Assembly: GCA_020619395.1 (NCBI GenBank)
Contig: GCA_020619395.1_4860.1
Length of the DNA: 64,000 bases
DNA from: a phage
Strand: one strand, 5' to 3'
Shown: positions 10,135 to 61,694 of the stretch, one piece after another
How positions within the stretch are numbered: position 1 is the first letter of the stretch
Layout: the number at the start of each line of letters is the position of its first letter
Translations under genes and position numbers: made by a program
Notes under the pieces: model-generated
Database searches by the model: none
What the model was told of the DNA's origin: nothing
What the model saw: only the letters and a program-made list of their open reading frames with translations

Positions 10135-10180
10135 TTTAAATATTCCTTAATAGTGATTGCAATCATAGTTCGGTTCGCAG

Positions 10181-10195
10181 AGATAATATCTGCCT
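10181..10195. promoter_or_regulatory. promoter-like motif AGATAATATCTGCCT, 47 bp upstream of the minus-strand start at 10134
   Basis: member of the recurrent AGATAATATC family in a divergent intergenic region. Confidence 0.4.
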
Positions 10196-10273
10196 GTAAT
10201 TTCATGGAATGCAAGTACGCCGTCGCTTACTTACAAGGCACATAGTCCAGACATTTCTCAGGAACTGTCACAT

Positions 10274-11763: not shown

Positions 11764-14043
11764 TTACTCCTCCGCTTCTTCCCCATCCTCTTCCTCTCCA
11801 TCACGTTCAGATTTCTTAACGTACTCGCCGCTACCTAATTCTTCCTTGACCGAGTCTACGGACTCGCCGTAGTAATCCGAAAGCAGACGAGTTCTGTTCT
11901 TGTCCATCATGAAGACACCCAGACATTCCAGGATGTGATAGTAAGGTTCTACTGTGGAGAATGCGCTTCGACGTGTGTCTGCAGCATCAATCAGCTCCGG
12001 AGGAATACCGAAGTTTTCCACCAAGAACTCTGGCAGTATCAGAGTACGATAGGTGCGATAGTTGTTCTCTTCGAACCACCGTGTTGCAGTGGTCTTAATC
12101 ATCGGGTCTTTAATGTTTTCCAGCCACTCTTTAACGGCTGTTTTGTTCTCCAGGTTTACCGGAAGTTTCACGGCGTCATAAGGCGGTTCGTCCAGGTAGC
12201 CGTACTTCGGTCCAAAGATGGCGTTGTACATGCGGTGATAGTGGTAGCTCTTTTCATCATCTTCAGAGTACGCACTACGGTCTTTGACGTTGGTTGTTTT
12301 CAGGTAGCCTGCTTTACCAGCGCGAATAGAATCCACCACAACGTGCTCAATTGCAGCAACCTTTTCCAGCAGAGGCAGAATCTTAATCTTGTCACCACGT
12401 GCCACGATCTCACAGAGTTCTTTAATCGTGCGTTTGAACTCTTTCATGACCACCGGAGGAATGTTCGACGTACGTAAAGACACGCCCTTAACTTCTAACT
12501 CAGGGTCAGACTTCAACTGCCCTTCCTGGCCAGTGATGATGGAGAAATAGTGTTTTGCTTTCGTGGTTAACGCAAAGGAGTCGAACTTAAATTCGTTCTT
12601 CATTGCGTACAAAAACAGACGCTCTTTCGCCACACCGATATTCGCCGACATACTCGCCATCAGATGACGTAAGTGCTGGGTTGCGATATAAATCATCGCA
12701 TCCGATACGCGCGTAGCTTCACGACCGTAATGTTGGCCGGTATACCACTGCGCCCACCACTGTGCAGTCATCATCGTGGAGTCGGTATCAGACACCACGC
12801 CGACACGACGAACCACGTCGGGCATCCTGGCAATGTTGATTGGCAGGTTTTTGGTGGTCAGGATATTACGAATCAAGCACGCGTACTTACCGATGGTTTT
12901 CTGCAGATACACAGCTGAGCGAATCAGCTCTTTGTATTTTTCCTGCTTATCCCACGGTTCCGCTTTGTTCGTGTTTTCGTCTTTGAGTTTAACGTCAGAG
13001 AACGACTTACCTAACGGCACGATATCAGTACGGAACTGCGAGATAATGATCTGCATGTCACCGTCGATAGAGCGCTCAGCGGCATCCCAATCAGTGATCT
13101 CGTCTTCCATCTCCTCGGCAATCAGCGCGCCGATAAATCCGCGCATGAATTCATCGTTGTATTTCGCCAGGTGGTAGAAGTCACCCATGTAGACAAACGC
13201 TGCACGTACCAGCGGGCTACAATTACCGACGTAGTGACGAATGAACTCCAGCCCTTCGTCGTTACGGAAGTAAAACTCTGCAGAGTACATAACCACTTCC
13301 ATAACCTCGTCCACTGTTGGGTAGTGGAGGTTATAGAGTTCCATACACTTCTTGAACTCCGCAAAGTTAGTCAGTGTACCGATAGAAAGTAGGTGGTCGA
13401 TAACACGGGACGGCGTGTCGTAGTGACGATTACCGCCCAGTAGACGTTCGTTGCCCGCGTTACCGAACGATGTAGCCGTACGGCAGGTTGACGTCAATAC
13501 AGAGTGCGAGGACTGGTTAAAGATTACCGTGTACGGTGATGAGAATGCACCCGACATTCCGTTGTTCAACGTCTTAACAGCGTTCTGTTCGTTCTTTTTG
13601 TTAATACGCAGAACTTCATTACCCGCAGCACCTGCTGCGTACATCTCTTTCTTAACGACCGCACGCTTACGCACGTTCTCTGCGGTAAATTCAGCAAGCT
13701 TAGAGCGCTTGACGTGCTCAGGCAGATAAAAGGTCAGCGACGGTGCAGAAATAATCTGCTTATCAATCACTGTACGGAACAGTTTATCTACCGTGGTGTA
13801 TTTTTCTTCGCGATCGCCGGTCTTTTGATTGCGCACCCACATCTTACACACGGGGAATTCGTGTACTAACTCACCACCAGGTTGGAACATTTCTTCGACC
13901 TGCTGTCGACAGAACTCCAAAGAATATTTCCCGTTGGTGACGGTATGAATGTAGAGCGCCAGTTGTTCGTAGTACGCATCGATAACGTCAATGTCGCGAT
14001 GATACTCGTCTTGACTAAGACGAAATGGTGAATTGTAGTCCAC
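11764..14043 (-). CDS. large hypothetical protein (759 aa), acidic C-terminus; function unassigned
   Basis: long ORF; has VVSDTDS and KTLNNGMSG segments but no coherent polymerase motif set. Confidence 0.6.
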   Translation of the reverse strand: MDYNSPFRLSQDEYHRDIDVIDAYYEQLALYIHTVTNGKYSLEFCRQQVEEMFQPGGELVHEFPVCKMWVRNQKTGDREEKYTTVDKLFRTVIDKQIISAPSLTFYLPEHVKRSKLAEFTAENVRKRAVVKKEMYAAGAAGNEVLRINKKNEQNAVKTLNNGMSGAFSSPYTVIFNQSSHSVLTSTCRTATSFGNAGNERLLGGNRHYDTPSRVIDHLLSIGTLTNFAEFKKCMELYNLHYPTVDEVMEVVMYSAEFYFRNDEGLEFIRHYVGNCSPLVRAAFVYMGDFYHLAKYNDEFMRGFIGALIAEEMEDEITDWDAAERSIDGDMQIIISQFRTDIVPLGKSFSDVKLKDENTNKAEPWDKQEKYKELIRSAVYLQKTIGKYACLIRNILTTKNLPINIARMPDVVRRVGVVSDTDSTMMTAQWWAQWYTGQHYGREATRVSDAMIYIATQHLRHLMASMSANIGVAKERLFLYAMKNEFKFDSFALTTKAKHYFSIITGQEGQLKSDPELEVKGVSLRTSNIPPVVMKEFKRTIKELCEIVARGDKIKILPLLEKVAAIEHVVVDSIRAGKAGYLKTTNVKDRSAYSEDDEKSYHYHRMYNAIFGPKYGYLDEPPYDAVKLPVNLENKTAVKEWLENIKDPMIKTTATRWFEENNYRTYRTLILPEFLVENFGIPPELIDAADTRRSAFSTVEPYYHILECLGVFMMDKNRTRLLSDYYGESVDSVKEELGSGEYVKKSERDGEEEDGEEAEE

Positions 14044-22511: not shown

Positions 22512-22592
22512 GGGGCGAGCAAACGGACGGATTCGAACCGTCGAAATATCCGATTATGAGTCGGGTGTTAATTCCTCTAACTTCGCTGCTCT
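22512..22592 (-). tRNA. tRNA-like sequence, anticodon CAU (Met or Ile2); non-canonical acceptor stem
   Basis: minus-strand T-arm GACGG-TTCGAAT-CCGTC, anticodon stem-loop CCGA-CTCATAA-TCGG and D-arm GTTA-GAGGAAT-TAAC found by hand; acceptor pairing imperfect. Confidence 0.35.
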
Positions 22593-22661
22593 TGCTTTGA
22601 CCGGACTCGAACCGGCGACCTTCCTCGAAGAGGTTGCTCTACCTACCTGAGCTACAAAGCC
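22592..22661 (-). tRNA. tRNA-like sequence; anticodon loop TTCGAGG (possible CGA) with a very short variable region
   Basis: minus-strand acceptor GGCTTTG/CAAAGC, D-arm GCTC...GAGC, T-arm GCCGG-TTCGAGT-CCGGT; isotype not resolved. Confidence 0.35.
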
Positions 22662-24013: not shown

Positions 24014-24089
24014 TGGCGGGGGCACGAGGTTTCGAACCTCGAACCTTCGGTTTTGGAGACCGGTGCGCTACCAATTGCGCCATACCCCC
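24014..24089 (-). tRNA. tRNA-Trp (anticodon CCA), 76 nt with encoded CCA end
   Basis: hand fold: acceptor GGGGGTA/TGCCCCC, D-arm GCGC-AATTGGTA-GCGC, anticodon loop CTCCAAA, T-arm CGAGG-TTCGAAA-CCTCG; anticodon arm identical to E. coli tRNA-Trp except one base. Confidence 0.8.
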
Positions 24090-45288: not shown

Positions 45289-46092
45289 TTACCAGCTCCT
45301 TACACCCATGCCCATTACCCGCAGATTGGACACTTTCGGAGCCAGCTGCAGGTATTCCTGCGCGAGTTGCTGGAGAGCACCACGACGGGACTCAGTGGCA
45401 ACAGCGCTGGTCGTTGTCGGATTGTACAGAATGTCTTCCAACACTTGACGACTGATAGGGCGGTCGACGTAAGTGCGAGTAGATTCCTGTGCCACTTTAC
45501 TACCGCGTTGAATCGCAGAGTATTTGTTACAGATTTGCAGGCCATCTTCAATAACCCAGTCAAAGGTGACCAGTTTATCGATGCGGCGTACGATTGTCGT
45601 ACCCAGACGACCTTCACGAACGATAGCACGCAGTGAGAAACACACGTTCTGATGTGGGTTCTCTAGTGCTTCCGCCAGAAGCGGACCACGTTCACGGTTA
45701 GGTTTAATCCAACCCCAGATTTCCATCACCGGCAGACCGTTACACATCTGGTCGGTCGGCTTCACTTCTACTTCGCGAATGTGCATACACACGTTACGCG
45801 TTTCGATCCATTCGTTACGTTCGATCCACTGGGCTTCGCTCATGCCTTGTTCGTATTGCGGATGGTCTTCTTCACCGAAGAGATTCCCCGCTAAAACTTT
45901 ACGCATGAAAACGTTAGAGCGCTCGAAGACATGTTTTGACTCGTTATAGGCGTAGTAAATATTCTCAGAGTTGAAAATATTCAGTGCACCTAACAGGACG
46001 TAGTAATATCCGTCCGCATCTTTCTTTAGCGTTGCCCCTTTATTGACCCCAGCGAGTGCCACGCAGTTATAACGTAGTGACAAGTTTTCCAT
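45289..46092 (-). CDS. hypothetical protein (267 aa)
   Basis: ORF in the virion-gene block. Confidence 0.55.
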   Translation of the reverse strand: MENLSLRYNCVALAGVNKGATLKKDADGYYYVLLGALNIFNSENIYYAYNESKHVFERSNVFMRKVLAGNLFGEEDHPQYEQGMSEAQWIERNEWIETRNVCMHIREVEVKPTDQMCNGLPVMEIWGWIKPNRERGPLLAEALENPHQNVCFSLRAIVREGRLGTTIVRRIDKLVTFDWVIEDGLQICNKYSAIQRGSKVAQESTRTYVDRPISRQVLEDILYNPTTTSAVATESRRGALQQLAQEYLQLAPKVSNLRVMGMGVRSW

Positions 46093-46154: not shown

Positions 46155-46883
46155 TTACCTCATATACAAATCCTCGAGTGGCTCTGCACGTACCGGATCG
46201 ACCTGGAGTGCAGAACGGATACCCTGTTTCAGTTCCACATCTGCAATCTTGGCCAACCGGGAAGTTTTGTTCAATGAACCTGAACGCAGCGGAATAAACT
46301 GCACCCGATTCATCAAATCGCTGTCTTTTTTCAGGGTGTAGCGGAAATACGTCCGCGGGTCGCCAACCTTACGCTGTGTGTGGGCAGCATAACAGTCAGC
46401 GGTGATCTGGTCGTTAAAGACCGTAAAGCCGTTCCACGTCTTAGTGTCAGACAATAGCTCAGCGTCATCTACTGCGGTGTACCAGAAAGGCCGGTTTCCG
46501 AAGTCGTAGATGTACGAAGCGATGTTGTAGACTGGCGAGGAGAGCACTTGCAGCATTCGGTTGGGGAACACCACCGTGCCGGGGTCAAAACGGAACTCGT
46601 AATACGGCACACCCTGAACATCAATTTCCTCAAACGCCGACGGGGTAATTTCAATGAACGTCGTGACGTTCGATACCCCGTAGGTTTTGCGGTCAGTGGA
46701 GATAGCGAAAATGCCGACGATTTCGACTTGCGAAGAAATTACCGCCAGCTCTTTAGCCACGAAGCCAACAGGGATGTAAATGTAACATCCCCCTTTGGTG
46801 ATGGTGGCCGTGCCTTGGTCCACTAAATCTGCATGAATTTTCGTCGCGTCACGACGTGCTGTTTCAATGGCGCTCACGACCAC
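46155..46883 (-). CDS. hypothetical protein (242 aa)
   Basis: ORF in series. Confidence 0.55.
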   Translation of the reverse strand: MVVSAIETARRDATKIHADLVDQGTATITKGGCYIYIPVGFVAKELAVISSQVEIVGIFAISTDRKTYGVSNVTTFIEITPSAFEEIDVQGVPYYEFRFDPGTVVFPNRMLQVLSSPVYNIASYIYDFGNRPFWYTAVDDAELLSDTKTWNGFTVFNDQITADCYAAHTQRKVGDPRTYFRYTLKKDSDLMNRVQFIPLRSGSLNKTSRLAKIADVELKQGIRSALQVDPVRAEPLEDLYMR

Positions 46884-48705: not shown

Positions 48706-51700
48706 TTAGTTGATTTTAGCCGGCAAGGCTGGGACGTCTTCACCATCTAAGATGCGTCCGATATTCTCCCCACCACGATACCCGACAGCGTTGGTGGTTC
48801 CGATGCGCATGATAGAACCTACGATACGTGCGTCGACGGAATCACGACCAAAGATAATGTCGAGTTCCTGCCCGTCTTCCGTTTTGTTGGTTCCATACAT
48901 CACTTCCTGAACCGTCGTTTTCAGCTGGTTAGCAATAACCATCTTATCCGCTGCTGCCATCTCTACCCGGTGTGTGATGTAGAATCGGACACACAGGCTA
49001 TTGTACGCTAACGGCACCCCCTCAACACGAAAATCACCGTTGACTCGACCGTCCTTCGGCTCGTCACGTTTGAGAGCCAGCGCAGTCTTCCGACGTATAC
49101 GGTCGTATTTACGAACCATCTCCGCCAAAGACGGGGTCATATCTTCCACCTCGCCGTGGTAAACCACTTCGATTTTGTCGATAAACCCACGAACACCAGA
49201 GCGTGGTGCAAAGGAGCTTAACTCACGCAGCGTTTCCGCTGCTTCTTTACTGAACCCGCTCATATCGCCGGTCAGGTTGTCGGTGAAGGTGCATAGAATT
49301 GAATCCACGTCTACGTGGTCCCCTTCTTTTACCATCTCCAACAGGTTCTGGGTAAACGTCATTGTGACTTCTTTGAGTTTGGTAACATCGGCTTCAGCCT
49401 TAGCAGCGAACCGCTCACTAATGGCGTTGGAGTCCTCAATTACTTCTTCCCCTTCAATCAAAGCGACAGTTGCCAGTATCCCGTTTTTAAAACTGACCTG
49501 CGTTGGATCGTAGATGTCTGGTTCAAAGTGTTGTTCGTTGTACGTGATAACGGCACCGGCAGGGAGTTTATCTCCGCGCTTCCATTTCGTTACCAGGGTG
49601 TGTGGGTAGTAAGTCCCTTCGTGCGGACCGAACCAACGGCCCAGTGGGAAAGCTTCTTCCTCTCCGTCGTCGTATTTGATTTTAACGTGGTCGTTAAGAA
49701 CCTCCACAATCTTGCCAGGTTTATCGATTACGCGTGCGTGCTTCACAGAAGTACGGTGTGCCACGAACTTTTCTTGCTCGGTACGATACGGTGTGGTGGT
49801 TGCGCCAACACAACTGGTCGCAGAACCGAATTGAATCCCAACGAAGTTCTGACGCTTAGCATCGTCCATCAGGGTATCCGGCACCAAGCCATCAATAAAT
49901 GACAGTGCCTCACCTGGCTTCAGTTTATCGAGGTCCTTTTTAAAGGTCGTGCCGTCCACGGTGTCGTAACGCGGATTGTTTGTTGCAAAGGCGGTGATAC
50001 CTACATCGCCGTTATCGACCGTGTTACCGGAGACAATCCCCAGGTCGCTCGGTTGGAATTCACGGGTACTGTAGACCATGGTCTTGCGGTTACGACCACC
50101 TGTACCGCCCATGGTAACAACATCTTTTTCTTTGATGTTCTGTACCGGGTTTGCGCCAGGTGCCAGCAGAACAGACGGGTCGGAGTTAATTGCACCCCAC
50201 ACCATGTCCTGCGTCAACTCAAACTTACGATTCGAGTTAGGCGCGTTGTTGTAGTTACGCATCGCCCGCACCATCGCGGTGTAGATGTGATACGAAATAC
50301 GTTGGTTCCCGATGAACATCATTTCGTCACCGTTAATTTCCGGTAACGTGTGGTCCGTCTGCAGCAGTTCGTTAGAACGCTCCAGTAAGCCGATAAAGGT
50401 TTCCGGCTCGCCCATTTTCCTGAGGATACGCGCGTGCATGTCATCAACAAATGCGGTCCGCATCAGTTTCAGCTCTTTGATGTAGCGTGGTGTTAGCCCA
50501 TCTGCATCGCGTAACAGGTTCAGGTAAATGTCTTCCCGGTCAACTTCCGACTCGGTATACGTGGTAAAGTGTTTGATGTAACGGTCTAAGCCGTTGACAA
50601 TCATCCTCTGTTGATCGTTCTCGCAGACAATTGCAATCTTCGCATCCTGGAGACGAATAATGGAGTCGAACTGACCTTTATCGATACGTTGTCCGACAGA
50701 GAGAACCTCGTAACTGATACCAAAGTGTTTCAACATCCCGGTTAACCCGAGATAGTACGAAAACACAAAGCCCAGCGAGATTGATTTGCCCATCAGTGAC
50801 AGTTCGGTCATTTCTCGTGGAGCCTTAGAGGTGTCCACGCCAAAGACCTCGGCGAGTGTACCCAGTGGTTCGGTCTTATCCTTATCCACTCGATAAAGCT
50901 GGGAGTTTTTATCCATACCGACGATGACATGACTCCGCGGTTTCTTCGCCACAGGTACCAGCTCGACACGGTCCGCGTCTGCCAGTTGCCCTTCGTTAAA
51001 GAATGCCGCTTTCTGTTTAATGTCAAAGTTCCATTGGTACCCAATTGCGTTGAACGCTGCTACACGACGTGCCACCTCGGTGTACTGACGCGGCAGTTTA
51101 GACAGCGGATCGAACACATTCGCCAGTTTTGCATCAGTGATTTCGGTGTTCTTTGGATCGACCGCGCGAGTAATAATCGCGTTAGTGAGCCAACGTCCGT
51201 AATCATTGACGACTTTATCACTGCGACGGACAAAGTTCTTCCCGTAGGCAGTGGTTAACGCTACAGTATCGTGGGACACTTTACGGATAGGAAGATCAAC
51301 GCGCTGACGACGCATTGTATATTCTACACCATTCGCAACCCAAGTACCGTCTTCGGTTAATGCAGGAATTGAGAAACGTACCGTGGTTGGTTCTCCGCCA
51401 ATCGGCTGAATACGCAACGTGTGGTGTTCGATATTCCCGGTAACGGAAATCTCTTTCTCGACAGTGTGATTGTGAATCGCCAAACCGAGACGCTGAGATG
51501 ACGCCACTGCGCCCAGAACATCTTTCGGGAAGATTTCCTGGTTGTACTGACGAATGATTTGGTCGGTGGTATTTTCCGCCCAGGCTTCATCCGTAACTAA
51601 GCGTTCAATCTTCTTAGGCTCGGCTTTAACTTCGAGTTTCTTCGGATCGATGGTCAGACCTTCGCCGTACGTCTCTTTAGGATTGTACGGGTTGGGTAAG

Positions 51701-52911
51701 TTTACGAAACGTTTAGAAGATTCGTTCAGGAACTGATACGCTTTGGCGGTGACGCGGCCCGCTTCTGCCAGGCGCTCAACTTCCTGTTTAATCACAGCAT
51801 CGTGTGGGATGGTGCGTTCTACGACGATGGTGGTTGGTTTGACATCTTCTTTCGGCGCTTCGATGACCAGATCTTCTTTCTCATCGAACTCATGATCGTT
51901 CAATGTATCGTCAACGTTGTCGCTTTGTGTTGCTTCATCGTCGACGATATCGAGGCTTTCTTCCGGTTTACTGGCAACGGTTTCAACGGCATCGTCGTCC
52001 TCTCCCAGATGTACGCGTTCATCCCCTTCCGGTGTAACGAACTCGTCATCTTCGTAGTCGGTAGACGGCGGTGTGGTCATCACCGTAGTCAGTGTACGGT
52101 AGAACATTCTGCCCATCTGCACGTCAGTCAAACGACCACCGGCAGACTTACGCATTCTTTCAATTACACCCATGTTCATGGATGTAAAACCACCGTTGTG
52201 TGTGAAGATAAAGTTCACACGTGACAGCTGGTTCATGTCCATACCGTCAAACAGTGTTGCTTGCTGATCGCCGTACACCCAACCGAACAACTCCAGTAAC
52301 CACAGCAGGTTAAAGTCTTTAAAGCGCTCCAGTTTGGTTTTAACACGATCGTTATACGTCATTTTAAAACGATCGAAAGAAGGCAGTACGTTACCCAGTT
52401 CGATGATGTAGTAGTTCTGACGCATGTACTCACGTGAGTCAGTTTTCATCTGGTTAGTTATCAGCAGCTGAATGTTGTGCAGACGTTCGTACCAGGACAT
52501 CAGAGTATCAGGGTAAAAATAATGCGGCAGCATCGGGGTGTAGTTTTCGATGAGCAGCACTTTCGGATCGGAACGTACCACGCCGTCTTCAATCATGCGA
52601 CGAATACGACGATTGTTACGATGGTACTGGAAGATTTGACGTTCTTGGCCAACAACCGGTTTCTTACGCGGATGGCCAATAATGCCGTCTTCAGGCAGCT
52701 GGAAGTGGTGGCGAATCATCGCCGGTTTTTCCAGCTGGCCAAAACATGGTGTAGTTAACGGTGGCGCTAAAACCACCTGGTCTAAATCGATGGTGTGGTA
52801 GATAGAACCACGTGGGAGCTGGAGCTTCTCCAGCGGGATAATACGCGGACGACCGAACTCATCGGTCTTGCGCACGGTAAAGCGCTGGTTAAACTGTTTC
52901 AGAAAAATCAT
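48706..52911 (-). CDS. multisubunit RNA polymerase beta-like subunit (1401 aa), probable virion RNAP
   Basis: EDGTWVANGVEYTMRRQ resembles the conserved beta N-terminal DNGTFVINGTERVIVSQ; C-terminal EDGQELDIIFGRDSVDARIVGSIM resembles the beta [25 protein letters not shown] region; lies next to a beta-prime-like gene. Confidence 0.5.
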   Translation of the reverse strand: MIFLKQFNQRFTVRKTDEFGRPRIIPLEKLQLPRGSIYHTIDLDQVVLAPPLTTPCFGQLEKPAMIRHHFQLPEDGIIGHPRKKPVVGQERQIFQYHRNNRRIRRMIEDGVVRSDPKVLLIENYTPMLPHYFYPDTLMSWYERLHNIQLLITNQMKTDSREYMRQNYYIIELGNVLPSFDRFKMTYNDRVKTKLERFKDFNLLWLLELFGWVYGDQQATLFDGMDMNQLSRVNFIFTHNGGFTSMNMGVIERMRKSAGGRLTDVQMGRMFYRTLTTVMTTPPSTDYEDDEFVTPEGDERVHLGEDDDAVETVASKPEESLDIVDDEATQSDNVDDTLNDHEFDEKEDLVIEAPKEDVKPTTIVVERTIPHDAVIKQEVERLAEAGRVTAKAYQFLNESSKRFVNLPNPYNPKETYGEGLTIDPKKLEVKAEPKKIERLVTDEAWAENTTDQIIRQYNQEIFPKDVLGAVASSQRLGLAIHNHTVEKEISVTGNIEHHTLRIQPIGGEPTTVRFSIPALTEDGTWVANGVEYTMRRQRVDLPIRKVSHDTVALTTAYGKNFVRRSDKVVNDYGRWLTNAIITRAVDPKNTEITDAKLANVFDPLSKLPRQYTEVARRVAAFNAIGYQWNFDIKQKAAFFNEGQLADADRVELVPVAKKPRSHVIVGMDKNSQLYRVDKDKTEPLGTLAEVFGVDTSKAPREMTELSLMGKSISLGFVFSYYLGLTGMLKHFGISYEVLSVGQRIDKGQFDSIIRLQDAKIAIVCENDQQRMIVNGLDRYIKHFTTYTESEVDREDIYLNLLRDADGLTPRYIKELKLMRTAFVDDMHARILRKMGEPETFIGLLERSNELLQTDHTLPEINGDEMMFIGNQRISYHIYTAMVRAMRNYNNAPNSNRKFELTQDMVWGAINSDPSVLLAPGANPVQNIKEKDVVTMGGTGGRNRKTMVYSTREFQPSDLGIVSGNTVDNGDVGITAFATNNPRYDTVDGTTFKKDLDKLKPGEALSFIDGLVPDTLMDDAKRQNFVGIQFGSATSCVGATTTPYRTEQEKFVAHRTSVKHARVIDKPGKIVEVLNDHVKIKYDDGEEEAFPLGRWFGPHEGTYYPHTLVTKWKRGDKLPAGAVITYNEQHFEPDIYDPTQVSFKNGILATVALIEGEEVIEDSNAISERFAAKAEADVTKLKEVTMTFTQNLLEMVKEGDHVDVDSILCTFTDNLTGDMSGFSKEAAETLRELSSFAPRSGVRGFIDKIEVVYHGEVEDMTPSLAEMVRKYDRIRRKTALALKRDEPKDGRVNGDFRVEGVPLAYNSLCVRFYITHRVEMAAADKMVIANQLKTTVQEVMYGTNKTEDGQELDIIFGRDSVDARIVGSIMRIGTTNAVGYRGGENIGRILDGEDVPALPAKIN

Positions 52912-52929
52912 ACATGTGCCTTATGGGTA

Positions 52930-54543
52930 TCATTTCAACAGCGCAGCAGTCGTTCTTTTAATCACGTTGTTAACCGGATTGATTTTGAAACTGCCGTCTG
53001 TTGCAAACCAGTAGTTTTTCGAACTGACCCACTTCCGATTTTCCTCGAGCGCTTCGGTTGACATCGGGCTGTTTGCTGAGCCGGTGTCACCATCGTAGTC
53101 ACCACCCAAGCCCCCTAATCGGGATGGATGTGGTGCCATGGATTCCACAAAGGTTTTCACGGTACGGTCAGGGAAGCTAATTGCTCCCTTCTCTTTTAAC
53201 GTGACCCAATCGTCTTCCAGTTCATGCAAATAGAGGGAAGAGGTGGTGGTCTCCAATCTTATGGTCGAGGAGTAAGTCGAACCGCGTCCCGTAACCGGAT
53301 AACGCGTGATGAACGAGAAGTAGTCATTCCAAATATCGTAACCTGACAAATAGAGGAGTTCCGCTAAGCTCAGTCCGCGGACAAGCTTACGGTCACGCCC
53401 CTCCGGCAGGTCTTCAATATCGTAAAAGATTTTGAAGCTGCGTTTGTCCTGGTAGATTAATGCCACGTAATGGTCCGGATCAATCATCAGCGGTTTATGT
53501 CGAAGCTCGCGCGCTTCCATTCTGTTGATGAGTGTTTCGATGCCATCGTCGGTAGTGAAAAGGTCATACACCCGCCCGGAGACTTCCAGGAACTCACGCT
53601 TGAGTGTTTTGGTGTTAACGCCGTATAAGTTGCCGTCCCCTGCCCGGATGTTACTGAGGTAACGTTCACGGATGTGGTATTGAGCCACAGGCAGTAATGC
53701 CTTCAGGGTTTGGTACAAACCGATACGGGTATCCGTTGGACGAATCGCATCTTCGCGACCCATGACCTTGGAACCGGTTGAGAATGAAGACAGTACGTTA
53801 CGCGTACCGTTCATTAACTTACGTGACGTCACTTTACGACGTGCAAAACCACCTTTACCATCTTGGATGTTAAAGAAGTACATCCAGATGTCATTAAAGG
53901 TTTGTTGGAGCTTCCAGCGAACCGGGTCAGTCAGTTCCGTTCGCGTACTGCGGTCGGGGATTGCACGTGCCAGAGAAATCAGACGGCGGTAGAGTCCGCC
54001 AATCTCTTCTTCTTGGTCGCGGCCATCCTGACGAATGACCAAATCACGTAATCCCGCAGGCAGAACCAGCACATAGCGGCTGAGACTGACCGGACGGAAC
54101 TTATTGAAGAAATCGACTGTCTCGTCGCGACGCATCGATTCGTTGCGTCCCGGTGTCAGTTGTTCGTAGTAGCGTAGGAAGAAGTTGAAGCCGGTGTCTG
54201 CACCTTTATCACTGGGCAGAGCCGGCTCGAAATCTTTTTCTTTCTCATTCCAGATAGCGAATCGCTTCCCGGAACAGATTTCTTCGTACAGCTGTTTCAG
54301 CTGGAACAATGCCAAACAAACGGTCGGCGAAATGATATCCAGTTTGATATCAATGTACGAGAACGTTGAGTCTCGTGCTTCGCTCCCTGTGAGGCCAAAA
54401 ATTTCGGTTGAATACAGTCCTTCAGGGTGAAAGTTTTTCGTCAGTCCCTGAAAGGTGTCTGTTGTTGTAACTGGTTTTAAATGCGACACCAGGGACTTGT
54501 TGACGTTTAACAAGTAAAAGTCAACCCAGTTTAGCTTTCTCAC
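52930..54543 (-). CDS. multisubunit RNA polymerase beta-prime N-terminal-like subunit, second copy (probable virion RNAP)
   Basis: GGDYDGDTGSANSPMSTEALEENR aligns with the beta-prime [24 protein letters not shown] metal-binding segment; N-terminal FHPEGLYSTEIFG resembles beta-prime FKPERDGLFCARIFGP; GTG start with AGGAG upstream. Confidence 0.6.
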   Translation of the reverse strand: MRKLNWVDFYLLNVNKSLVSHLKPVTTTDTFQGLTKNFHPEGLYSTEIFGLTGSEARDSTFSYIDIKLDIISPTVCLALFQLKQLYEEICSGKRFAIWNEKEKDFEPALPSDKGADTGFNFFLRYYEQLTPGRNESMRRDETVDFFNKFRPVSLSRYVLVLPAGLRDLVIRQDGRDQEEEIGGLYRRLISLARAIPDRSTRTELTDPVRWKLQQTFNDIWMYFFNIQDGKGGFARRKVTSRKLMNGTRNVLSSFSTGSKVMGREDAIRPTDTRIGLYQTLKALLPVAQYHIRERYLSNIRAGDGNLYGVNTKTLKREFLEVSGRVYDLFTTDDGIETLINRMEARELRHKPLMIDPDHYVALIYQDKRSFKIFYDIEDLPEGRDRKLVRGLSLAELLYLSGYDIWNDYFSFITRYPVTGRGSTYSSTIRLETTTSSLYLHELEDDWVTLKEKGAISFPDRTVKTFVESMAPHPSRLGGLGGDYDGDTGSANSPMSTEALEENRKWVSSKNYWFATDGSFKINPVNNVIKRTTAALLK

Positions 54544-54572: not shown

Positions 54573-57500
54573 ATGGCAAAAAGAGGCAAAGACGGTTTCG
54601 ATGATATCGATTTAGATAGACTCGACGACTGGGATGATTTCGGTGAACCACCCCGTCCCAAAGACGAGAAAAAACGAAGCCCGATACTCAGTACCCTGAA
54701 TGTTGCCAGGAAGTCGGCGTTGTCAACTATCTGGCCAGAAGGGAAACGCGACCAAGTTATCCTCAAGGGGATGCCTAAGCCGGCAGCTGATACATACGAG
54801 GGCTATCAGTCAGCGGCAGCTGCAGCAAAGGACATTTACGCCCATACGAAAGGGGAGCTTGAGAAGACCGAGCGCACGCTGAAGATGCAAGCGCGTCAAC
54901 TCGGACCGACAATGAAGAAATACTTGCCGGATGCAGTTACTAAACGCTTCGACAAGTGGTCAAAATCTGACCAGTTAGATTACCAGAACTACGATCCGAA
55001 TCAGGCATTGATGGATCGTGAACTGGGCGACGTATTCTCAGGTGTGCCAAAGGACGCCGATGAGCAACGTCAGCTGCAGGATCGCATGGTAGAGGACAAG
55101 CTCCGTGACAGCATCAAAGAGATGCGCGCGGATGCAATGCACCAAACCATGATTGGGATGGCGAAAGATATTAACCTGTTAACCGGGTTAAGCCGTGGGG
55201 TATTCTTAAACATCGAGCGTAAGAAGCTCGAATTGCAATACCGCACCCTGTTCGCCATTCAAGACATCGTGAAGATGAAGCAGTCGGAGTTCGATCGTAA
55301 CACGCCTGCTTTAGAAGCCATCGTGAAGAACACGGCACTGCCGGATTACGCGAAGGAAGATTTCTCAGAAGTCCGTTGGGCGAACGTTAAACGCCAGGCT
55401 GCGGAATGGATGAACCCGTTGCGTTATGCTGACGGGTTTATGGACATGATTCGCGAAAATACCAAGAAGAAAATTTCTGGTATATTTGGCGAAGGTCGTG
55501 GTTTGTTAGAGTCCGTTCTCGGCATGGGTGTTGAAGACGATTTCGGCATGAGCGATAGCTCTTCGTTGACTGCCGAACGTCGCAAAACAAATGCTCGCGA
55601 TAAAGCAACTGCATGGGGTAGCGGATTCCTTGCGAAGAAACTACTCGGCCCACAAATCGAGAAACTCCAGAAATGGACTCGTGAGGAGATGGAGAAAAAT
55701 CCAGAGGTCATGAAACGCCTGCAGAAGGGCGCGTTCACCTTTGGTAATCTTTCCTCTATCTCGAACTCAGCTATCGCAGGCGAAACGCAAGGACCGTTGG
55801 CGGATTTGTTCCGGGTATTGAATGAACTCGGTATTGTCCAACCGTTAAACCGCGAGAAAGCTTTTCTTGATGAGCGTAATGGCGAAACGTTAAGCCGTTC
55901 GGCGAAGTTTGACCGCAAAGCGTATCTTAGCATAGTTGAAGTTATTCCTGCCTGGCTGGCAGAGATTAACAAATCTGTTCGTCGTGGCTATGGCGAACAT
56001 GCCGACCTGGAATATGACATCACCAGCCGTGGTTTCGTAGACCGCAAAGTGGTCGGTAATCGTGTACGAAAAGCGGTTGCAAATGATGAGCAGCGTCTGC
56101 GTCTTCAGAATTCCATTAATAGCACTGTGGATTTTGTTGACCGCGGCAAAACACTCTCGCAGAAGGATCGTCAGCATCTTGCCGACTATATTGAGTCGCG
56201 TGCCTCGCAGGGCCGTGCATTCGACGTAGAAGCAATTTTGAAAGACCCGATGCATCTTCATCGGTATATGCCAGGAAACTCTGCAGAACGCATTAAGGAA
56301 GCGTTACAGGGGCATTCTGATAGCCTGGTCGGTGGTAGCAACGAATTAAGTAACGAACTGGCTCGCAAAATCTCCACAGTGCAGTCATCTATCACCCAAC
56401 GTCAGGCAATTATCGACGAGGCGGTGAATATTTACGGCGAGCGAGCGTTGCGTGATGCGGGTATCTTTAACTACGACGCGAAGAGTGACACCTTCGGCGT
56501 GGATAAAGACCTGTCCGATCCCTATACCTTGTTTAATGACTTGGCGATGGGTAAGACACGCAGCGGGCGTGCATTGACTCGTGACCAGGAGATTCAACGT
56601 AAGCTGCAAAATGGTTCGGCGTTAGGCGACTATCTGCGCCGAATGAACCAAGGGGCAAGTGGTGGTGCCGATGACACGTCGTTACCGCCGGCTTTACGTG
56701 GCGGTGGTAAAGGCCGCGGAATGTCGCCTCGGCAGCTAGCCGCGGTTCTCTACGGTGAAACCTCGACTAACTTTGTTGAATTGTTGAGTCAACGTAACCG
56801 TGGCGAAGAAGCGCCACGGAATAACTTTGACGGTATCATCGAAGCGATTCGGGGTAACAACAACAGTGACACCCTCCAGAAAATTCTGGAACACGTCAGA
56901 AGCATGGACGAAGAAGGGGTTCTCCTGGCTTCGTTAGCAGGGGGTGCTGGTTCTGGCGATGAAGAAATGGGCCCGCCTCGCCCTGGCGGTGGTAGCGGTG
57001 GCGGTAAACGCCGTCGTATTATCATCGGTGAGGATGGGCTTATTCGTCGTTGGGGTGGTGTGTTGTTCGACACCGCAACAGGAATCGGCGGCTTTGCAAA
57101 ACGTGGTGTTAAGGGTGCCTGGAATAAACTGAACCAGTTCGGTGGCTGGGCACGCGGTAAAGTCGCAGGAATGGGTGGCGGAGAAGGTCCTGGTTTCTTA
57201 ACCCGGATGCGTGGCCTTATTAGTGGTAGTGTCCGTGGGGGCTTTGAAGCAGTAAGCTCTTTCGGTAAAGGACTACTGGGTATCCGCGACATTTACGATG
57301 ACCACGGTAATGTTGTTCTGCAGGGCGCACGCCTGGAAGCTGGGGAATACTACCAGGTTATTGATGGTAAGATGGTTCAGTTGAAAACACTGGACGACAT
57401 CAAGCTGGGGAGCGACATTGTTGACTCCGCAGGTAATCTGGTATTAGCGGCCGCTGACTTAGCCGCTGCGGGTAAACTCCGCTACTATAAAGGCGGGAAA

Positions 57501-60500
57501 ATCCAAGCACTGACCCAAGGTCTGGCCAGTAAGATTGGTTTAGGCTTTAATAAGGTGGCTAAGCTACCGAAAAGGTTCCTGGATTTCCTGTCACCAAAAG
57601 CGGGCAGCATCGTTGGTAAGATTAAGGACTGGCTGAACGAGATTCCGGAAGGCGAAGAAAAGACACGTCTCCAGAAAGCGTTCAACCGTGTAACGAGCTT
57701 ACCGGGTAAAGTGCTCGGTTTTGCGAAACGTGGTGTCGATCGTCTGAAAGACATGATTACCGACAACCCACTGACGCGTTGGTGGAAAGGCCGTAAAGAT
57801 GGTGGGGGTGGTGGTTTCAGTCTCTTCTCATCAACCGGCAAGAAAACCAACCACATCCTTATCCGTATCTATAAACTGTTGAACCAACGTTTACCGGGAG
57901 ATCCGGAAGACGAAAGTTGGACAGAGGAAATGGAGAAGGGCGTCGGGGGTGGCGGTAGTACGATCGGTCGTGCAGTACGCGGGGCGTATGATCGTGCGAA
58001 AGCGTCATTGTCTGAACGTTTTGGTGGACGTTGGTCAAGAACAAAAGCGTTCTTTGGTCGTGGACGTGACCGCCTGCGTGGTTGGTTCAGTGGTTTCCGA
58101 GGCCGGGCTGGGGATATGCTCGATGGATATCGTGGAGCACGACACGACATTGCTACACGTTACGAAGTTGAACGTCGGTTGGCTGGACGCGATGATGATG
58201 TTGCTGAGTTTTATCGCAGCCATTTGAACGCGAAAGGTGGCCTTTCTGGCCGTAAAGTCTACGGCGATGCGAAGGAAGACCTTGAGACCGCCCGCGATGC
58301 AGCAGGGAGGGTTATCAACAAAGGGAAGAATGCCGCCAAGTCAGCAGGTGCAAGGTTATTCGAACGCTTGGACCGAATGATTGGCTTGCAAGAGATGTCG
58401 TGGTTTAACACCATGCGCGAATCAGTATCCCGTGCAGGTGGCGACGATGGCATTATTCGTACCATGTTTGCGAAGTTCGGTAAACGTAACAAGCCGCCTG
58501 AAGGTGATGAAAAACGCGACTACTTTAACTTCTTCAAACGTTGGCGTGAGAAACGTAAGGAGAAGAAAGAGAAAGCGCAGGGCTCCAAAGGGAAATCTGG
58601 CGGTCTGTGGGATATGGTGAAAGGCTTACCTATCATCGGTCCCATCGTCAGTATCTTGGGAACTGTGGGTAATATACTCGGTTCTATCACGAAATGGGGT
58701 GTGTTAAAACCCGTAGGTCTTTTAGGTAAGGCTGCGTGGAATGTTGGTAAGTTCGCAGTAACCCGTTTGGCGGCACCCGCGGTGTCCGCTGTGGCAACTG
58801 CGGCATCTGCCGTCGTGACAGCAGTGGGCTGGCCGGCAATTCTTATCGGTGGTGCGATCGCTGCGGCAGGTTACGCCGCGTACAAGATCGCAACGACTAC
58901 CTATACCCAGTACCTGGATAAGATGCGTTTAGCTCAGTACGGTTTCCGTGATTACGATAAGTGGTCGTCGGACGACGGGGCGAAGGCGCGTTACTTAGAA
59001 GACGCATTGCGTGAGTATGTGTCTTACGCGGAAGATGGCCAAGCCAGTCTCCGCGGACTAAGTGGAAAAGACGTTCAGAAGTTAGCTGAAGGGTTCGGTA
59101 TCAACGTTGAGGAAAAAGGCGAGATGTTGGCCTTCCAAGCGTTTATGCTTCAGCGCTTCATTCCGATTTATCTCCGCTGGATTACGGCACTGAAATCGAT
59201 GCCGAACAGTATCCAGTTGGCTGACGTCGGCGATGCGAAGAAAGTATCGAAAGAGGACATGCAGACACTCTTCAACAAAATGAAGATGACTAAGGATGCA
59301 AAAGCGTTCTCTTCGTTAACTGACCCACGCAAAGTCAACCAAGGTTTCTTCTCGAAAGCTTGGGACGTTGTAACCTTTACACCGAAGGAGTTTTTGAGCG
59401 GTGAAGAGGTTATGGAAGTGCAGAATGAAGTTGAGCGTGCAATCAAGTTCAGAATGGACGATAAGAAAGCACGTAAGTACGGAATGGCACCGGCTGTAGA
59501 GGGGATTAAGTCCGCGGGCGTTGATGAAGCTATCAACAAACTTGGACAGTTGGATAACGAACGTAATAAAAATCTGGCGAAGGTAGAGGGTTGGGAAGAC
59601 GGAACAGAGCAGGTTCAGATTCAGGTAGACTGGAATGCGGTGCTCGACCAGAAAGACATGAATGCGATGGAGTCGGTACGTTGGAAGACTTATGGTTTTA
59701 CCACCATCGACAACGCCACACGCACGTTGATTACGGTATTCGAGAAAAACGTCATCAAAGACATTGACGTGAAAACCGCAAGCTACAAAGGTGATTGGAA
59801 GAAAGCAATCGCCTCAATGGTTCCAGACGCTATCGGCACACCGAAAGAAGATCGTTTGAAGCGGTGGTTCTTTGACCGTTTCTTACCGGTATTCATGACG
59901 TACTTGGTTGGGGTGAAACGCTACCTGCCAACAGCTGATCCGCTGAACTTGAAACTGACCGGCGGTTACCTGTACGAAATCAGTTTGATGATGTCAACTG
60001 CCTACAGCTTGAAAGGCGGTATAAGACAGTCGGTGTGGGAAGTGAATATCAACCCATTAGGGGGCGATGCTAACACGAACCCATCGTCTATCAAAGCCGA
60101 GCTGGAAACGCTGAAGCTGTTGTCAAAAGAAGCTGACCTTGCCGTGCGTAACATGATTAAAGCCATTAAAAATAATGGCAAGCGTGCACGCTGGAAGGAT
60201 CGTAACAAGAACCGCAGTTCTCTGGAAGTCACCGGTGAAGATGAAGAAGACTCGAACATCAGTTCGGGAGATTCTTTGTCATCTGACGGTGCTCGCGCCT
60301 CAGGCTACATGCCATCGGGTACGAGTGGTGGTGTGCCGGGTAACTTGGGTCAAGTCGTCGATGCGGTTGGTGGTGTGCGGAACTACGCTGCAATGACCAC
60401 TGGTTCGTCTTCGATTAACCTGAGTGATGTGAAAGACGGTGATTATAAGTCACTGGCTGAAAAATACCCGATAGAAATGTTGGGTAGAAAGGGTGCGTTG

Positions 60501-61694
60501 AACGTTCCGAATATCAAAGCATTGATTACCGATGCAGCGAACATGATGGGCGTGCCACCTGCAGTGGCGTTAGCAATGGCTAAGGCGGAGTCCGGATTTA
60601 ACTACACCGCTAAAAACCCGTATGCTTCGGCGTCTGGGTTGTTCCAGTTTGTTAACGGCACGTGGGACGGGATGATGAAGGGGTATTCGCGGAAGTTTGG
60701 TATTCCGCGTGTTAACCAAATGGACCCGTGGGCGAATGCTATACTGGGTGTACAGTTCATTCGTGACAACATCCAACAAGCACAACGTGACCTGGGTGGT
60801 AAAGCACCACCTCCAGCCGTGGCTTATCTGTACCACTTCCTAGGTGCAGGCGGCGGTAAGAAATTCCTGGAAGCGTGGAAGCGTAATCCGAATATGGCGG
60901 CATCGAGTGCTCCTGGGATTACATCCGCAATATTGAGAGGGAATGCCAACGTCTTCTACAGCAACGGTCGTATACGTAGCGTAGACGGGGTTATTCAGGA
61001 ACTGAACCGCCGCATGGGCGCAATTTCCGCCAACGAAGTCGCTGCCGATCCGAGCAAGACGAAGGATATGGTTGCAGGCTTGTCGCCTAATTCACCAACC
61101 AACCCGGCAGCAGCAATGGGTGCACCGGCCGCTAATGACCCGAGTCTGTCACCGGCAGATAACCTGCCAGCAGATAATGCTAATCGTCGTGATGACGCAT
61201 TGACGCAGAAAGGGGCCATGGCGGCACAAGATGCAATGGCTACCGCCGCAGGTAATGTAGGACCAGCAGCACCTACACCAACCACAGGCGGTACCGGAAC
61301 ATCCGATGCCTCAACAACGGCCGAAACCGTAGCGTCGCAAGCTGCAGCAGAAGGATTGTCTGCGACGGATGTTGCTAAAGTGAAAGCAGGCGCGGAAGCG
61401 CAGGTTAACGCAGCAGCTCGTCCAGTTGCCGCTCCAACTTCTGATGCTACAGCATCGACGCCAACGCTGAATGGTGACCCGATAGATGTTCAGCAGCTCA
61501 AGGTACTGATTCAGTCTCGCGATTACTTGAAAGAGATTCGTGATATTTTGAAATCAAATCCGAGAGCAGCAAACGACACGCGTGGTGGTAGTATCCAGCA
61601 AGCGGCAAATGTTCCTCCTCCGGGCTCAGCTGCACGCAGGCAGGAAATAACCCAACCGACACCGTCGTTAAACGTAAGTCGGAAAGCAAGCTAA
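54573..61694 (+). CDS. giant virion-associated protein (2373 aa) with C-terminal lytic transglycosylase (SLT) domain, central hydrophobic segments and Gly-rich repeats
   Basis: SLT signature ALAMAKAESGFNYTAKNPYASASGLFQFVNGTWDG around 60560-60660; hydrophobic stretch GLPIIGPIVSILG...AILIGGAIAAAGYAAY; repeated FAKRGV and GGGG/GGSGGG segments. Confidence 0.65.
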   Translation: MAKRGKDGFDDIDLDRLDDWDDFGEPPRPKDEKKRSPILSTLNVARKSALSTIWPEGKRDQVILKGMPKPAADTYEGYQSAAAAAKDIYAHTKGELEKTERTLKMQARQLGPTMKKYLPDAVTKRFDKWSKSDQLDYQNYDPNQALMDRELGDVFSGVPKDADEQRQLQDRMVEDKLRDSIKEMRADAMHQTMIGMAKDINLLTGLSRGVFLNIERKKLELQYRTLFAIQDIVKMKQSEFDRNTPALEAIVKNTALPDYAKEDFSEVRWANVKRQAAEWMNPLRYADGFMDMIRENTKKKISGIFGEGRGLLESVLGMGVEDDFGMSDSSSLTAERRKTNARDKATAWGSGFLAKKLLGPQIEKLQKWTREEMEKNPEVMKRLQKGAFTFGNLSSISNSAIAGETQGPLADLFRVLNELGIVQPLNREKAFLDERNGETLSRSAKFDRKAYLSIVEVIPAWLAEINKSVRRGYGEHADLEYDITSRGFVDRKVVGNRVRKAVANDEQRLRLQNSINSTVDFVDRGKTLSQKDRQHLADYIESRASQGRAFDVEAILKDPMHLHRYMPGNSAERIKEALQGHSDSLVGGSNELSNELARKISTVQSSITQRQAIIDEAVNIYGERALRDAGIFNYDAKSDTFGVDKDLSDPYTLFNDLAMGKTRSGRALTRDQEIQRKLQNGSALGDYLRRMNQGASGGADDTSLPPALRGGGKGRGMSPRQLAAVLYGETSTNFVELLSQRNRGEEAPRNNFDGIIEAIRGNNNSDTLQKILEHVRSMDEEGVLLASLAGGAGSGDEEMGPPRPGGGSGGGKRRRIIIGEDGLIRRWGGVLFDTATGIGGFAKRGVKGAWNKLNQFGGWARGKVAGMGGGEGPGFLTRMRGLISGSVRGGFEAVSSFGKGLLGIRDIYDDHGNVVLQGARLEAGEYYQVIDGKMVQLKTLDDIKLGSDIVDSAGNLVLAAADLAAAGKLRYYKGGKIQALTQGLASKIGLGFNKVAKLPKRFLDFLSPKAGSIVGKIKDWLNEIPEGEEKTRLQKAFNRVTSLPGKVLGFAKRGVDRLKDMITDNPLTRWWKGRKDGGGGGFSLFSSTGKKTNHILIRIYKLLNQRLPGDPEDESWTEEMEKGVGGGGSTIGRAVRGAYDRAKASLSERFGGRWSRTKAFFGRGRDRLRGWFSGFRGRAGDMLDGYRGARHDIATRYEVERRLAGRDDDVAEFYRSHLNAKGGLSGRKVYGDAKEDLETARDAAGRVINKGKNAAKSAGARLFERLDRMIGLQEMSWFNTMRESVSRAGGDDGIIRTMFAKFGKRNKPPEGDEKRDYFNFFKRWREKRKEKKEKAQGSKGKSGGLWDMVKGLPIIGPIVSILGTVGNILGSITKWGVLKPVGLLGKAAWNVGKFAVTRLAAPAVSAVATAASAVVTAVGWPAILIGGAIAAAGYAAYKIATTTYTQYLDKMRLAQYGFRDYDKWSSDDGAKARYLEDALREYVSYAEDGQASLRGLSGKDVQKLAEGFGINVEEKGEMLAFQAFMLQRFIPIYLRWITALKSMPNSIQLADVGDAKKVSKEDMQTLFNKMKMTKDAKAFSSLTDPRKVNQGFFSKAWDVVTFTPKEFLSGEEVMEVQNEVERAIKFRMDDKKARKYGMAPAVEGIKSAGVDEAINKLGQLDNERNKNLAKVEGWEDGTEQVQIQVDWNAVLDQKDMNAMESVRWKTYGFTTIDNATRTLITVFEKNVIKDIDVKTASYKGDWKKAIASMVPDAIGTPKEDRLKRWFFDRFLPVFMTYLVGVKRYLPTADPLNLKLTGGYLYEISLMMSTAYSLKGGIRQSVWEVNINPLGGDANTNPSSIKAELETLKLLSKEADLAVRNMIKAIKNNGKRARWKDRNKNRSSLEVTGEDEEDSNISSGDSLSSDGARASGYMPSGTSGGVPGNLGQVVDAVGGVRNYAAMTTGSSSINLSDVKDGDYKSLAEKYPIEMLGRKGALNVPNIKALITDAANMMGVPPAVALAMAKAESGFNYTAKNPYASASGLFQFVNGTWDGMMKGYSRKFGIPRVNQMDPWANAILGVQFIRDNIQQAQRDLGGKAPPPAVAYLYHFLGAGGGKKFLEAWKRNPNMAASSAPGITSAILRGNANVFYSNGRIRSVDGVIQELNRRMGAISANEVAADPSKTKDMVAGLSPNSPTNPAAAMGAPAANDPSLSPADNLPADNANRRDDALTQKGAMAAQDAMATAAGNVGPAAPTPTTGGTGTSDASTTAETVASQAAAEGLSATDVAKVKAGAEAQVNAAARPVAAPTSDATASTPTLNGDPIDVQQLKVLIQSRDYLKEIRDILKSNPRAANDTRGGSIQQAANVPPPGSAARRQEITQPTPSLNVSRKAS

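Follow-up and report, generated by a model that had tools for sequence, protein, structure and literature searches.

A putative virion-packaged, split RNA polymerase and its β- and β'-type subunit genes in a Seoulvirus-type jumbo phage

A 64,000-nucleotide (nt) stretch of phage DNA (GenBank assembly GCA_020619395.1, contig GCA_020619395.1_4860.1; hereafter the window, in whose positions all coordinates are given) carries at 48706-54543 two neighbouring open reading frames (ORFs) of 1401 and 537 amino acids (aa). With a probability of about 0.95 their products are two of the five polypeptides of a virion-packaged, split multisubunit RNA polymerase (vRNAP; RNAP for RNA polymerase in general) of an SPN3US-like phage. 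The 537-aa protein would form the N-terminal part of the β' subunit and supply the Mg2+-binding aspartate triad in the form DYDGD, and the 1401-aa protein would supply the N-terminal roughly 80% of β behind a phage-specific module. The complex is expected to include in addition a β-C subunit (gp218), a β'-M subunit (gp42) and a β'-C subunit (the gp244 homologue). In the next infection the vRNAP would be ejected together with the DNA and transcribe the early phage genes without the host RNA polymerase, after which a non-virion enzyme (nvRNAP), with a 531-aa ORF of the window as its β'-N subunit, would take over.

Virion-packaged multisubunit RNAPs let phiKZ-like jumbo phages begin transcription inside a protective vesicle without host RNAP, and to our knowledge no other relatives of cellular RNA polymerase have diverged further. 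The feature itself is already known, the SPN3US enzyme having been described genetically and by mass spectrometry in 2016-2017; the value of the locus lies in correct annotation, with three vRNAP genes and one nvRNAP gene assigned in a phage of the Seoulvirus type. Orthology, β and β' homology by profile and fold, conservation of the active-site motif and synteny were established in the present analysis. Packaging, essentiality and co-dependent incorporation are taken from the literature on SPN3US, and early transcription and injection from that on phiKZ; given a nucleotide identity of 98-99%, we infer that the phage of this window behaves like these two.

Subunit identity of the 537-aa and 1401-aa proteins

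Both ORFs lie on the minus strand at the coordinates and with the lengths given in the preliminary description of this DNA. The 537-aa protein matches phrog_2986 over its full length (E=3.4e-238), and is 99.6% identical at the amino acid level to SPN3US gp240. Its homologues number in the hundreds and come from jumbo phages that infect Pseudomonas, Erwinia, Vibrio, Serratia, Aeromonas, Klebsiella, Ralstonia, Staphylococcus and Bacillus. Single-sequence searches of Pfam and the PDB give nothing significant for it, the PDB yielding a marginal match to plastid β' and none to gp55. A family profile built from 30 homologues is far more sensitive to the relationship: among solved structures it best matches the β' N-terminal chain of the AR9 nvRNAP (7s01_d, E=1.4e-12), followed by plastid β' (8qma_T, 2.7e-9) and bacterial β' (about 4e-6). 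The region matched is the conserved β' segment that ends in the GK.G..R...R motif, and the DxDGD stretch aligns as a separate segment. The 537-aa protein is thus a β'-N homologue carrying the catalytic DxDGD triad, and the β'-like N-terminus ascribed to it earlier is borne out by β' chain matches with E-values from 1.4e-12 to 1e-6 together with the presence of the three aspartates.

The triad is located within the segment ...RLGGLGGDYDGDTGS... (GGDYDGDTGS at residues 480-489) and comprises D482, D484 and D486, so that the DYDGD motif reported in the preliminary description is indeed present. D482 is invariant among the profile sequences, at least 90% of which retain D484, G485 and D486. The middle position varies: 107 homologues have a recognisable motif, which reads DFDGD in 61, DYDGD in 36 and DHDGD in nine, with the tyrosine form typical of the clade of SPN3US, Erwinia and Cronobacter phages. 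The solved β' chain of the AR9 nvRNAP is also DYDGD in the profile alignment. Tyrosine was considered as a sign of inactivation and rejected, as Y, F and H alternate naturally and the AR9 chain has the same residue; the tyrosine that had been singled out as worth noting is an ordinary variant of the clade.

These patterns bear on the idea that the two proteins are pseudoenzymes, i.e. inactive polymerase-derived head or ejection proteins in which the replacement of phenylalanine by tyrosine marks decay. Such a reading could draw on the extreme divergence from cellular RNAP, the lack of a Pfam match, the non-canonical motif and the want of any published in vitro activity for a vRNAP of the SPN3US clade, but it is very improbable in view of the conserved aspartates, the DYDGD of AR9 and the retention of the hallmark β motifs in the 1401-aa protein. 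Furthermore, gp241, gp218 and gp244 are essential in SPN3US (PMC5105663, PMC5694885), and phiKZ does not depend on host RNAP for infection (PMC13282480).

Residues 11-517 of the 537-aa protein align with phiKZ gp180 at 33% identity (E=3e-84) once the latter has been conceptually spliced, since a group I intron containing the ORF gp179 splits phiKZ gene 180 exactly within its ADFDGD codons. Splicing restores ADFDGD in gp180, and the alignment then runs through the motif, with DFDGD in phiKZ facing DYDGD in the window. In phiKZ (NC_004629, L002 10441-11845) the annotated gp180 ends in ...APLGAD, and the downstream frame that represents exon 2 resumes with FDGDTVSFNAV...; the intron is recognised as Rfam RF00028 with 92 bits (L002 11509-11830). 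The window gene, unlike its phiKZ counterpart, is uninterrupted, and no group I intron of this type was found in the window genes. Some ten metagenomic homologues (P0071-P0089; 478-497 aa) likewise break off ahead of the motif, probably because their genes are interrupted in a similar way.

The 537-aa ORF starts with GTG, and an AGGAG Shine-Dalgarno sequence is found 7 nt upstream of it. Two lengths are on record for SPN3US gp240 (window positions 54490-54543), as GenBank gives 537 aa from the GTG and the tables of Thomas in 2016 and 2017 list 519 aa and 59.6 kDa (PMC5105663, PMC5694885). The latter values place the start at Val19, the calculated mass being 59.59 kDa for a 519-aa and 61.79 kDa for a 537-aa protein. 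However, residues 1-18 (..WVDFYLLNVNKSLV..) are kept in homologues down to 38% identity, whose own starts coincide with the GTG. This conservation at the protein level and the AGGAG upstream favour the GTG over Val19, and the shorter start was rejected. The GTG had also been described as worth noting: the start itself is supported, but it is normal for this clade.

The 1401-aa protein matches phrog_3148 over residues 1-1391 (E=0), and its residues 4-1390 align with residues 5-1444 of phiKZ gp178 at 29% identity. Together with the PHROG match of the 537-aa protein and the hundreds of homologues, this E-value means that neither ORF match is due to chance, and both window proteins are full-length orthologues of their phiKZ counterparts by the alignment to gp178 and gp180 that the preliminary description had proposed as a check. 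As with the 537-aa protein, single-sequence searches of Pfam and the PDB give nothing significant; marginal matches to Sgs1, KCMF1 and ribosomal protein L7a were dismissed, as they fall in an acidic low-complexity linker. A family profile built from 27 homologues matches the β subunit of Thermus thermophilus (1iw7_C; hmmsearch, E=3.9e-11) in four collinear segments that span β residues 117-880. Profile positions 507-529 correspond to β 117-139, 908-975 to β 396-464 (GTGGR versus GPGGL), 985-1112 to β 532-655 (DDAKR versus DDANR) and 1297-1353 to β 822-880, where ADK..QLK faces GDK..GNK with both lysines aligned.

The fold agrees with the profile. An AlphaFold2 (AF2) model of residues 441-1401, based on an 11-sequence alignment, has a mean predicted local distance difference test score (pLDDT) of 66.9 and a predicted template modelling score (pTM) of 0.47. 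In a Foldseek search of the PDB its top 50 matches are all bacterial RNAP β chains (E=4e-14 to 6e-12, probability 1.00). The 1401-aa protein is β-like by profile and by predicted fold, and the β-fold homology on which its assignment had been made to depend is therefore present. It is not a complete β, as the Thermus match stops near residue 880 of 1119 and does not include the extreme C-terminus; it consists instead of a phage-specific module of roughly 400 aa followed by the N-terminal roughly 80% of β. The earlier claim that it resembles both terminal regions of β holds for the N-terminal and central parts up to the GDK...K motif and fails for the extreme C-terminus.

The first ~400 residues of the 1401-aa protein have no counterpart in β. 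A separate AF2 model of residues 1-440, computed from its own alignment, shows a confident α/β domain at 1-285 with a block pLDDT mostly above 90, followed by an acidic disordered linker (289-340) and two helices before the β-like part begins at about residue 440. The same combination of N-terminal extension and acidic linker is present in phiKZ gp178. With the N-terminal module as query, a profile search of the PDB found no matches, and in the viral structure library BFVD the module matches only β homologues of jumbo-phage vRNAPs, two of them stand-alone proteins of about 461 aa. In the proposal of Thomas et al. the N-terminal extension directs the enzyme, once assembled, to the prohead (PMC5694885). 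In phage 201phi2-1 the first 275 residues are cleaved off as a propeptide, whereas SPN3US gp241 is unprocessed (PMC5694885).

A probable packaged polymerase and a non-packaged one

The genes of SPN3US gp240 and gp241 are essentially the same as those of the window, from which they differ by a few substitutions only; they are equal in length (1401 aa and, in GenBank, 537 aa) and have the same neighbours, gp239 and gp242 to gp245. In the SPN3US record the two ORFs appear as SPN3US_0240 and SPN3US_0241, "putative DNA-directed RNA polymerase beta subunit 4" and "5"; their neighbours are gp239 (the giant tail-associated transglycosylase) to one side and gp242, gp243, gp244 and gp245 to the other. 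The same order is found in phiKZ as gp181 (transglycosylase), gp180, gp178, gp177, gp176 and gp175 (protease), that is, with the same divergent setting beside the transglycosylase and the same downstream block of head genes gp177-gp175.

The packaged state of the enzyme is well documented in SPN3US. Thomas et al. attributed β-C to a separate 222-aa protein, gp218, β'-M to gp42 and β'-C to gp244 (PMC5105663), the last being a proposed assignment as the fifth subunit (PMC5105663, PMC5694885). Mass spectrometry detected gp240, gp241, gp218, gp42 and gp244 in purified virions and in tailless heads, and all five proteins are lost in the amber mutants 241(am), 218(am) and 244(am) (PMC5105663, PMC5694885). 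In phiKZ, gp180 is present in about 10 copies per virion, is injected and co-purifies with gp178, gp80 and gp149 (PMC10612078). A 2026 review ascribes early transcription, within the early-infection vesicle, to the vRNAP and a later role, in the phage nucleus, to the nvRNAP (PMC13282480). The proposal of the preliminary description that the pair represents the packaged enzyme is supported by these data, as the two proteins are orthologues of phiKZ gp180 and gp178 and as mass spectrometry has shown packaging in the 98% identical SPN3US.

The 531-aa ORF at 6603-8198 contains the sequence NGDFDGD and corresponds to gp23 in the SPN3US annotation. A phmmer search with the 531-aa protein finds gp55 of the solved phiKZ nvRNAP (7ogp_A) with E=1.4e-38 and bacterial β' with about 1e-4; the protein also matches Pfam PF00623 (E=4e-4) and phrog_2987 (E=9.8e-180), a different PHROG family from that of the 537-aa protein. 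Direct comparison of the two window proteins is only marginal (BLASTP E=0.23; hhalign of profile versus sequence E=0.015), and for this reason paralogy is argued via the match of each protein to β'. They are ancient, highly diverged paralogues, and the window holds subunits of two polymerases, a vRNAP and an nvRNAP. This accords with the earlier suggestion of two distinct β'-N homologues and, by extension, of two separate multisubunit RNAPs, the one represented by the gp55 orthologue and the other by the 537-aa and 1401-aa pair.

Both β'-N-like proteins have an intact DxDGD and the neighbourhood of virion genes is circumstantial, so that by sequence the roles could in principle be swapped, with the 537-aa and 1401-aa proteins forming the non-virion enzyme of middle and late infection and the 531-aa protein belonging to the packaged one. 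This arrangement is effectively refuted by the strength of the gp55 match of the 531-aa protein, by the orthology and synteny of the pair with phiKZ gp180 and gp178 (structural head proteins by annotation), and by the occurrence of gp240 and gp241 in purified SPN3US heads (PMC5105663, PMC5694885).

A further explanation invokes sequencing error, by which either the adjacent ORFs, which share a strand and are separated by just 18 nt, or the two β'-like ORFs would be pieces of one broken gene. It is already refuted. Among cellular subunits, the homologue of the 537-aa protein is β' and that of the 1401-aa protein is β. The 1401-aa ORF has its own ATG, and dozens of independent genomes with 98-99% identity, like distant relatives, have their gene boundaries in the same places. 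The two β'-N genes lie 45 kb apart and each contains a full triad, therefore they are not the fragments of a single frameshifted gene that the preliminary description had considered.

The AR9 nvRNAP (PDB 7S00/7S01) and the phiKZ nvRNAP (7OGP) are likewise enzymes with split β and β' and without homologues of α, ω and σ. Unlike the vRNAP they are not packaged, and it is the 531-aa and not the 537-aa protein that is the window orthologue of phiKZ gp55. The bacterial enzyme (T. thermophilus 1IW7, chains C and D) has the fold in common with the phage subunits and shares with them the DxDGD triad and GK.G..R of β' and the GPGG-like, DDA.R and GDK...K motifs of β. It differs in that the phage subunits are split into two or three genes and β carries the phage N-terminal module of ~400 aa, in that identity amounts to just 11-14%, and in that the phage enzyme is packaged in the capsid and ejected through the tail.

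Several points weigh against the assignment of the pair to a virion-packaged polymerase. The single-sequence searches being null, the homology of both proteins rests on profiles and fold, and the β-like AF2 model is of moderate quality with a poorly modelled active-site region (model residues 479-614). No vRNAP chain is among the matches in the sequence and fold searches of solved-structure libraries, and the SPN3US-type vRNAP is without demonstrated biochemical activity. Finally, only three of the five subunits lie in the window, namely β-N, β'-N and the gp244-type β'-C candidate, with the homologues of gp218 and gp42 located outside it by synteny; a full set is not demonstrable from the window alone. 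The "second RNAP set" of the preliminary description accordingly holds for the catalytic subunits of a second enzyme but not for a complete set.

Gene layout and source phage

The genes assigned to the two polymerases and two context genes are listed in Table 1.

Table 1. Polymerase subunit genes and context genes in the 64,000-nt window
Feature	Position	Strand	Relation
vRNAP β-N subunit (predicted), 1401 aa, ATG start	48706..52911	-	orthologue of SPN3US gp241, phiKZ gp178
vRNAP β'-N subunit (predicted), 537 aa, GTG start	52930..54543	-	orthologue of SPN3US gp240, phiKZ gp180
Putative β'-C (fifth) vRNAP subunit	46155..46883	-	homologue of SPN3US gp244, phiKZ gp176
nvRNAP β'-N subunit (predicted), 531 aa	6603..8198	-	orthologue of SPN3US gp23, phiKZ gp55
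Tail-associated transglycosylase, 2373 aa; context gene, not part of the polymerase	54573..61694	+	orthologue of SPN3US gp239, phiKZ gp181
Prohead protease; context gene	45289..46092	-	orthologue of SPN3US gp245, phiKZ gp175; phrog_3014 "head maturation protease" E=6e-109

The transglycosylase gene is divergent from the 537-aa gene, with its start 29 nt from the GTG, and its product matches phrog_3201 (E=0) and phrog_4067 (transglycosylase, E=5e-30). The putative β'-C gene encodes 242 aa from a GTG or 240 aa from the GenBank start 6 nt downstream; it matches phrog_2926 "virion structural protein" (E=1.3e-94) and is linked to SPN3US_0244 by synteny and nucleotide identity. The prohead protease belongs to the conserved head-gene block that houses the vRNAP genes. 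A scan of 45-56 kb for sigma-70 promoters and terminators (6 versus 10.1 expected and 14 versus 12.6 in shuffled sequence, respectively) is uninformative because such sites are no commoner than in shuffled sequence.

In a megablast search of a phage collection with 48706-54543 as the query, 42 records cover at least 80% of it. Nucleotide identity amounts to 99.3% with the Salmonella phages SPFM and SPLA, to 98.0% with Salmonella phage SPN3US of the genus Seoulvirus and to about 80% with Erwinia phages. Judging from these matches the window is that of a Seoulvirus-type, phiKZ-related jumbo phage.

A "hypothetical protein" encoded on a 241,679-bp contig, which is deposited as Salmonella enterica serovar Enteritidis, has exactly the sequence of the 537-aa protein (100% identity), and several other homologues are likewise listed under Salmonella serovars. 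These entries look like jumbo-phage genomes in bacterial assemblies, present as a carrier state or as contamination. In some SPFM records (SPFM1, 6, 8, 9 and 12; P0101, P0102, P0104, P0155, P0156 and P0158) the RNAP-subunit proteins are of odd length and have high HMMER scores yet just 3-12% BLASTP query coverage, which points to frameshifts or gene-calling errors in the assemblies concerned.

Other features of the window

The minus-strand tRNA region comprises matches at 22518-22589, 22592-22661 and 24014-24089. ARAGORN calls a single tRNA-Trp(CCA) there, and Rfam adds two further adjacent weak tRNA-like matches of 30.6 and 40.9 bits without an ARAGORN call. The SPN3US annotation has a "tRNA-OTHER" in the corresponding region.

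A 576-aa ORF with a TTG start (8515-10245, plus strand) runs antisense to a real 617-aa gene (8281-10134, minus strand), which belongs to phrog_8316 and is a homologue of SPN3US gp22; the antisense ORF is almost certainly spurious. The 759-aa protein encoded at 11764-14043 on the minus strand is a divergent family B DNA polymerase (Pfam PF20286, E=4e-284), whose SPN3US counterpart, gp18, is annotated merely as a hypothetical protein.

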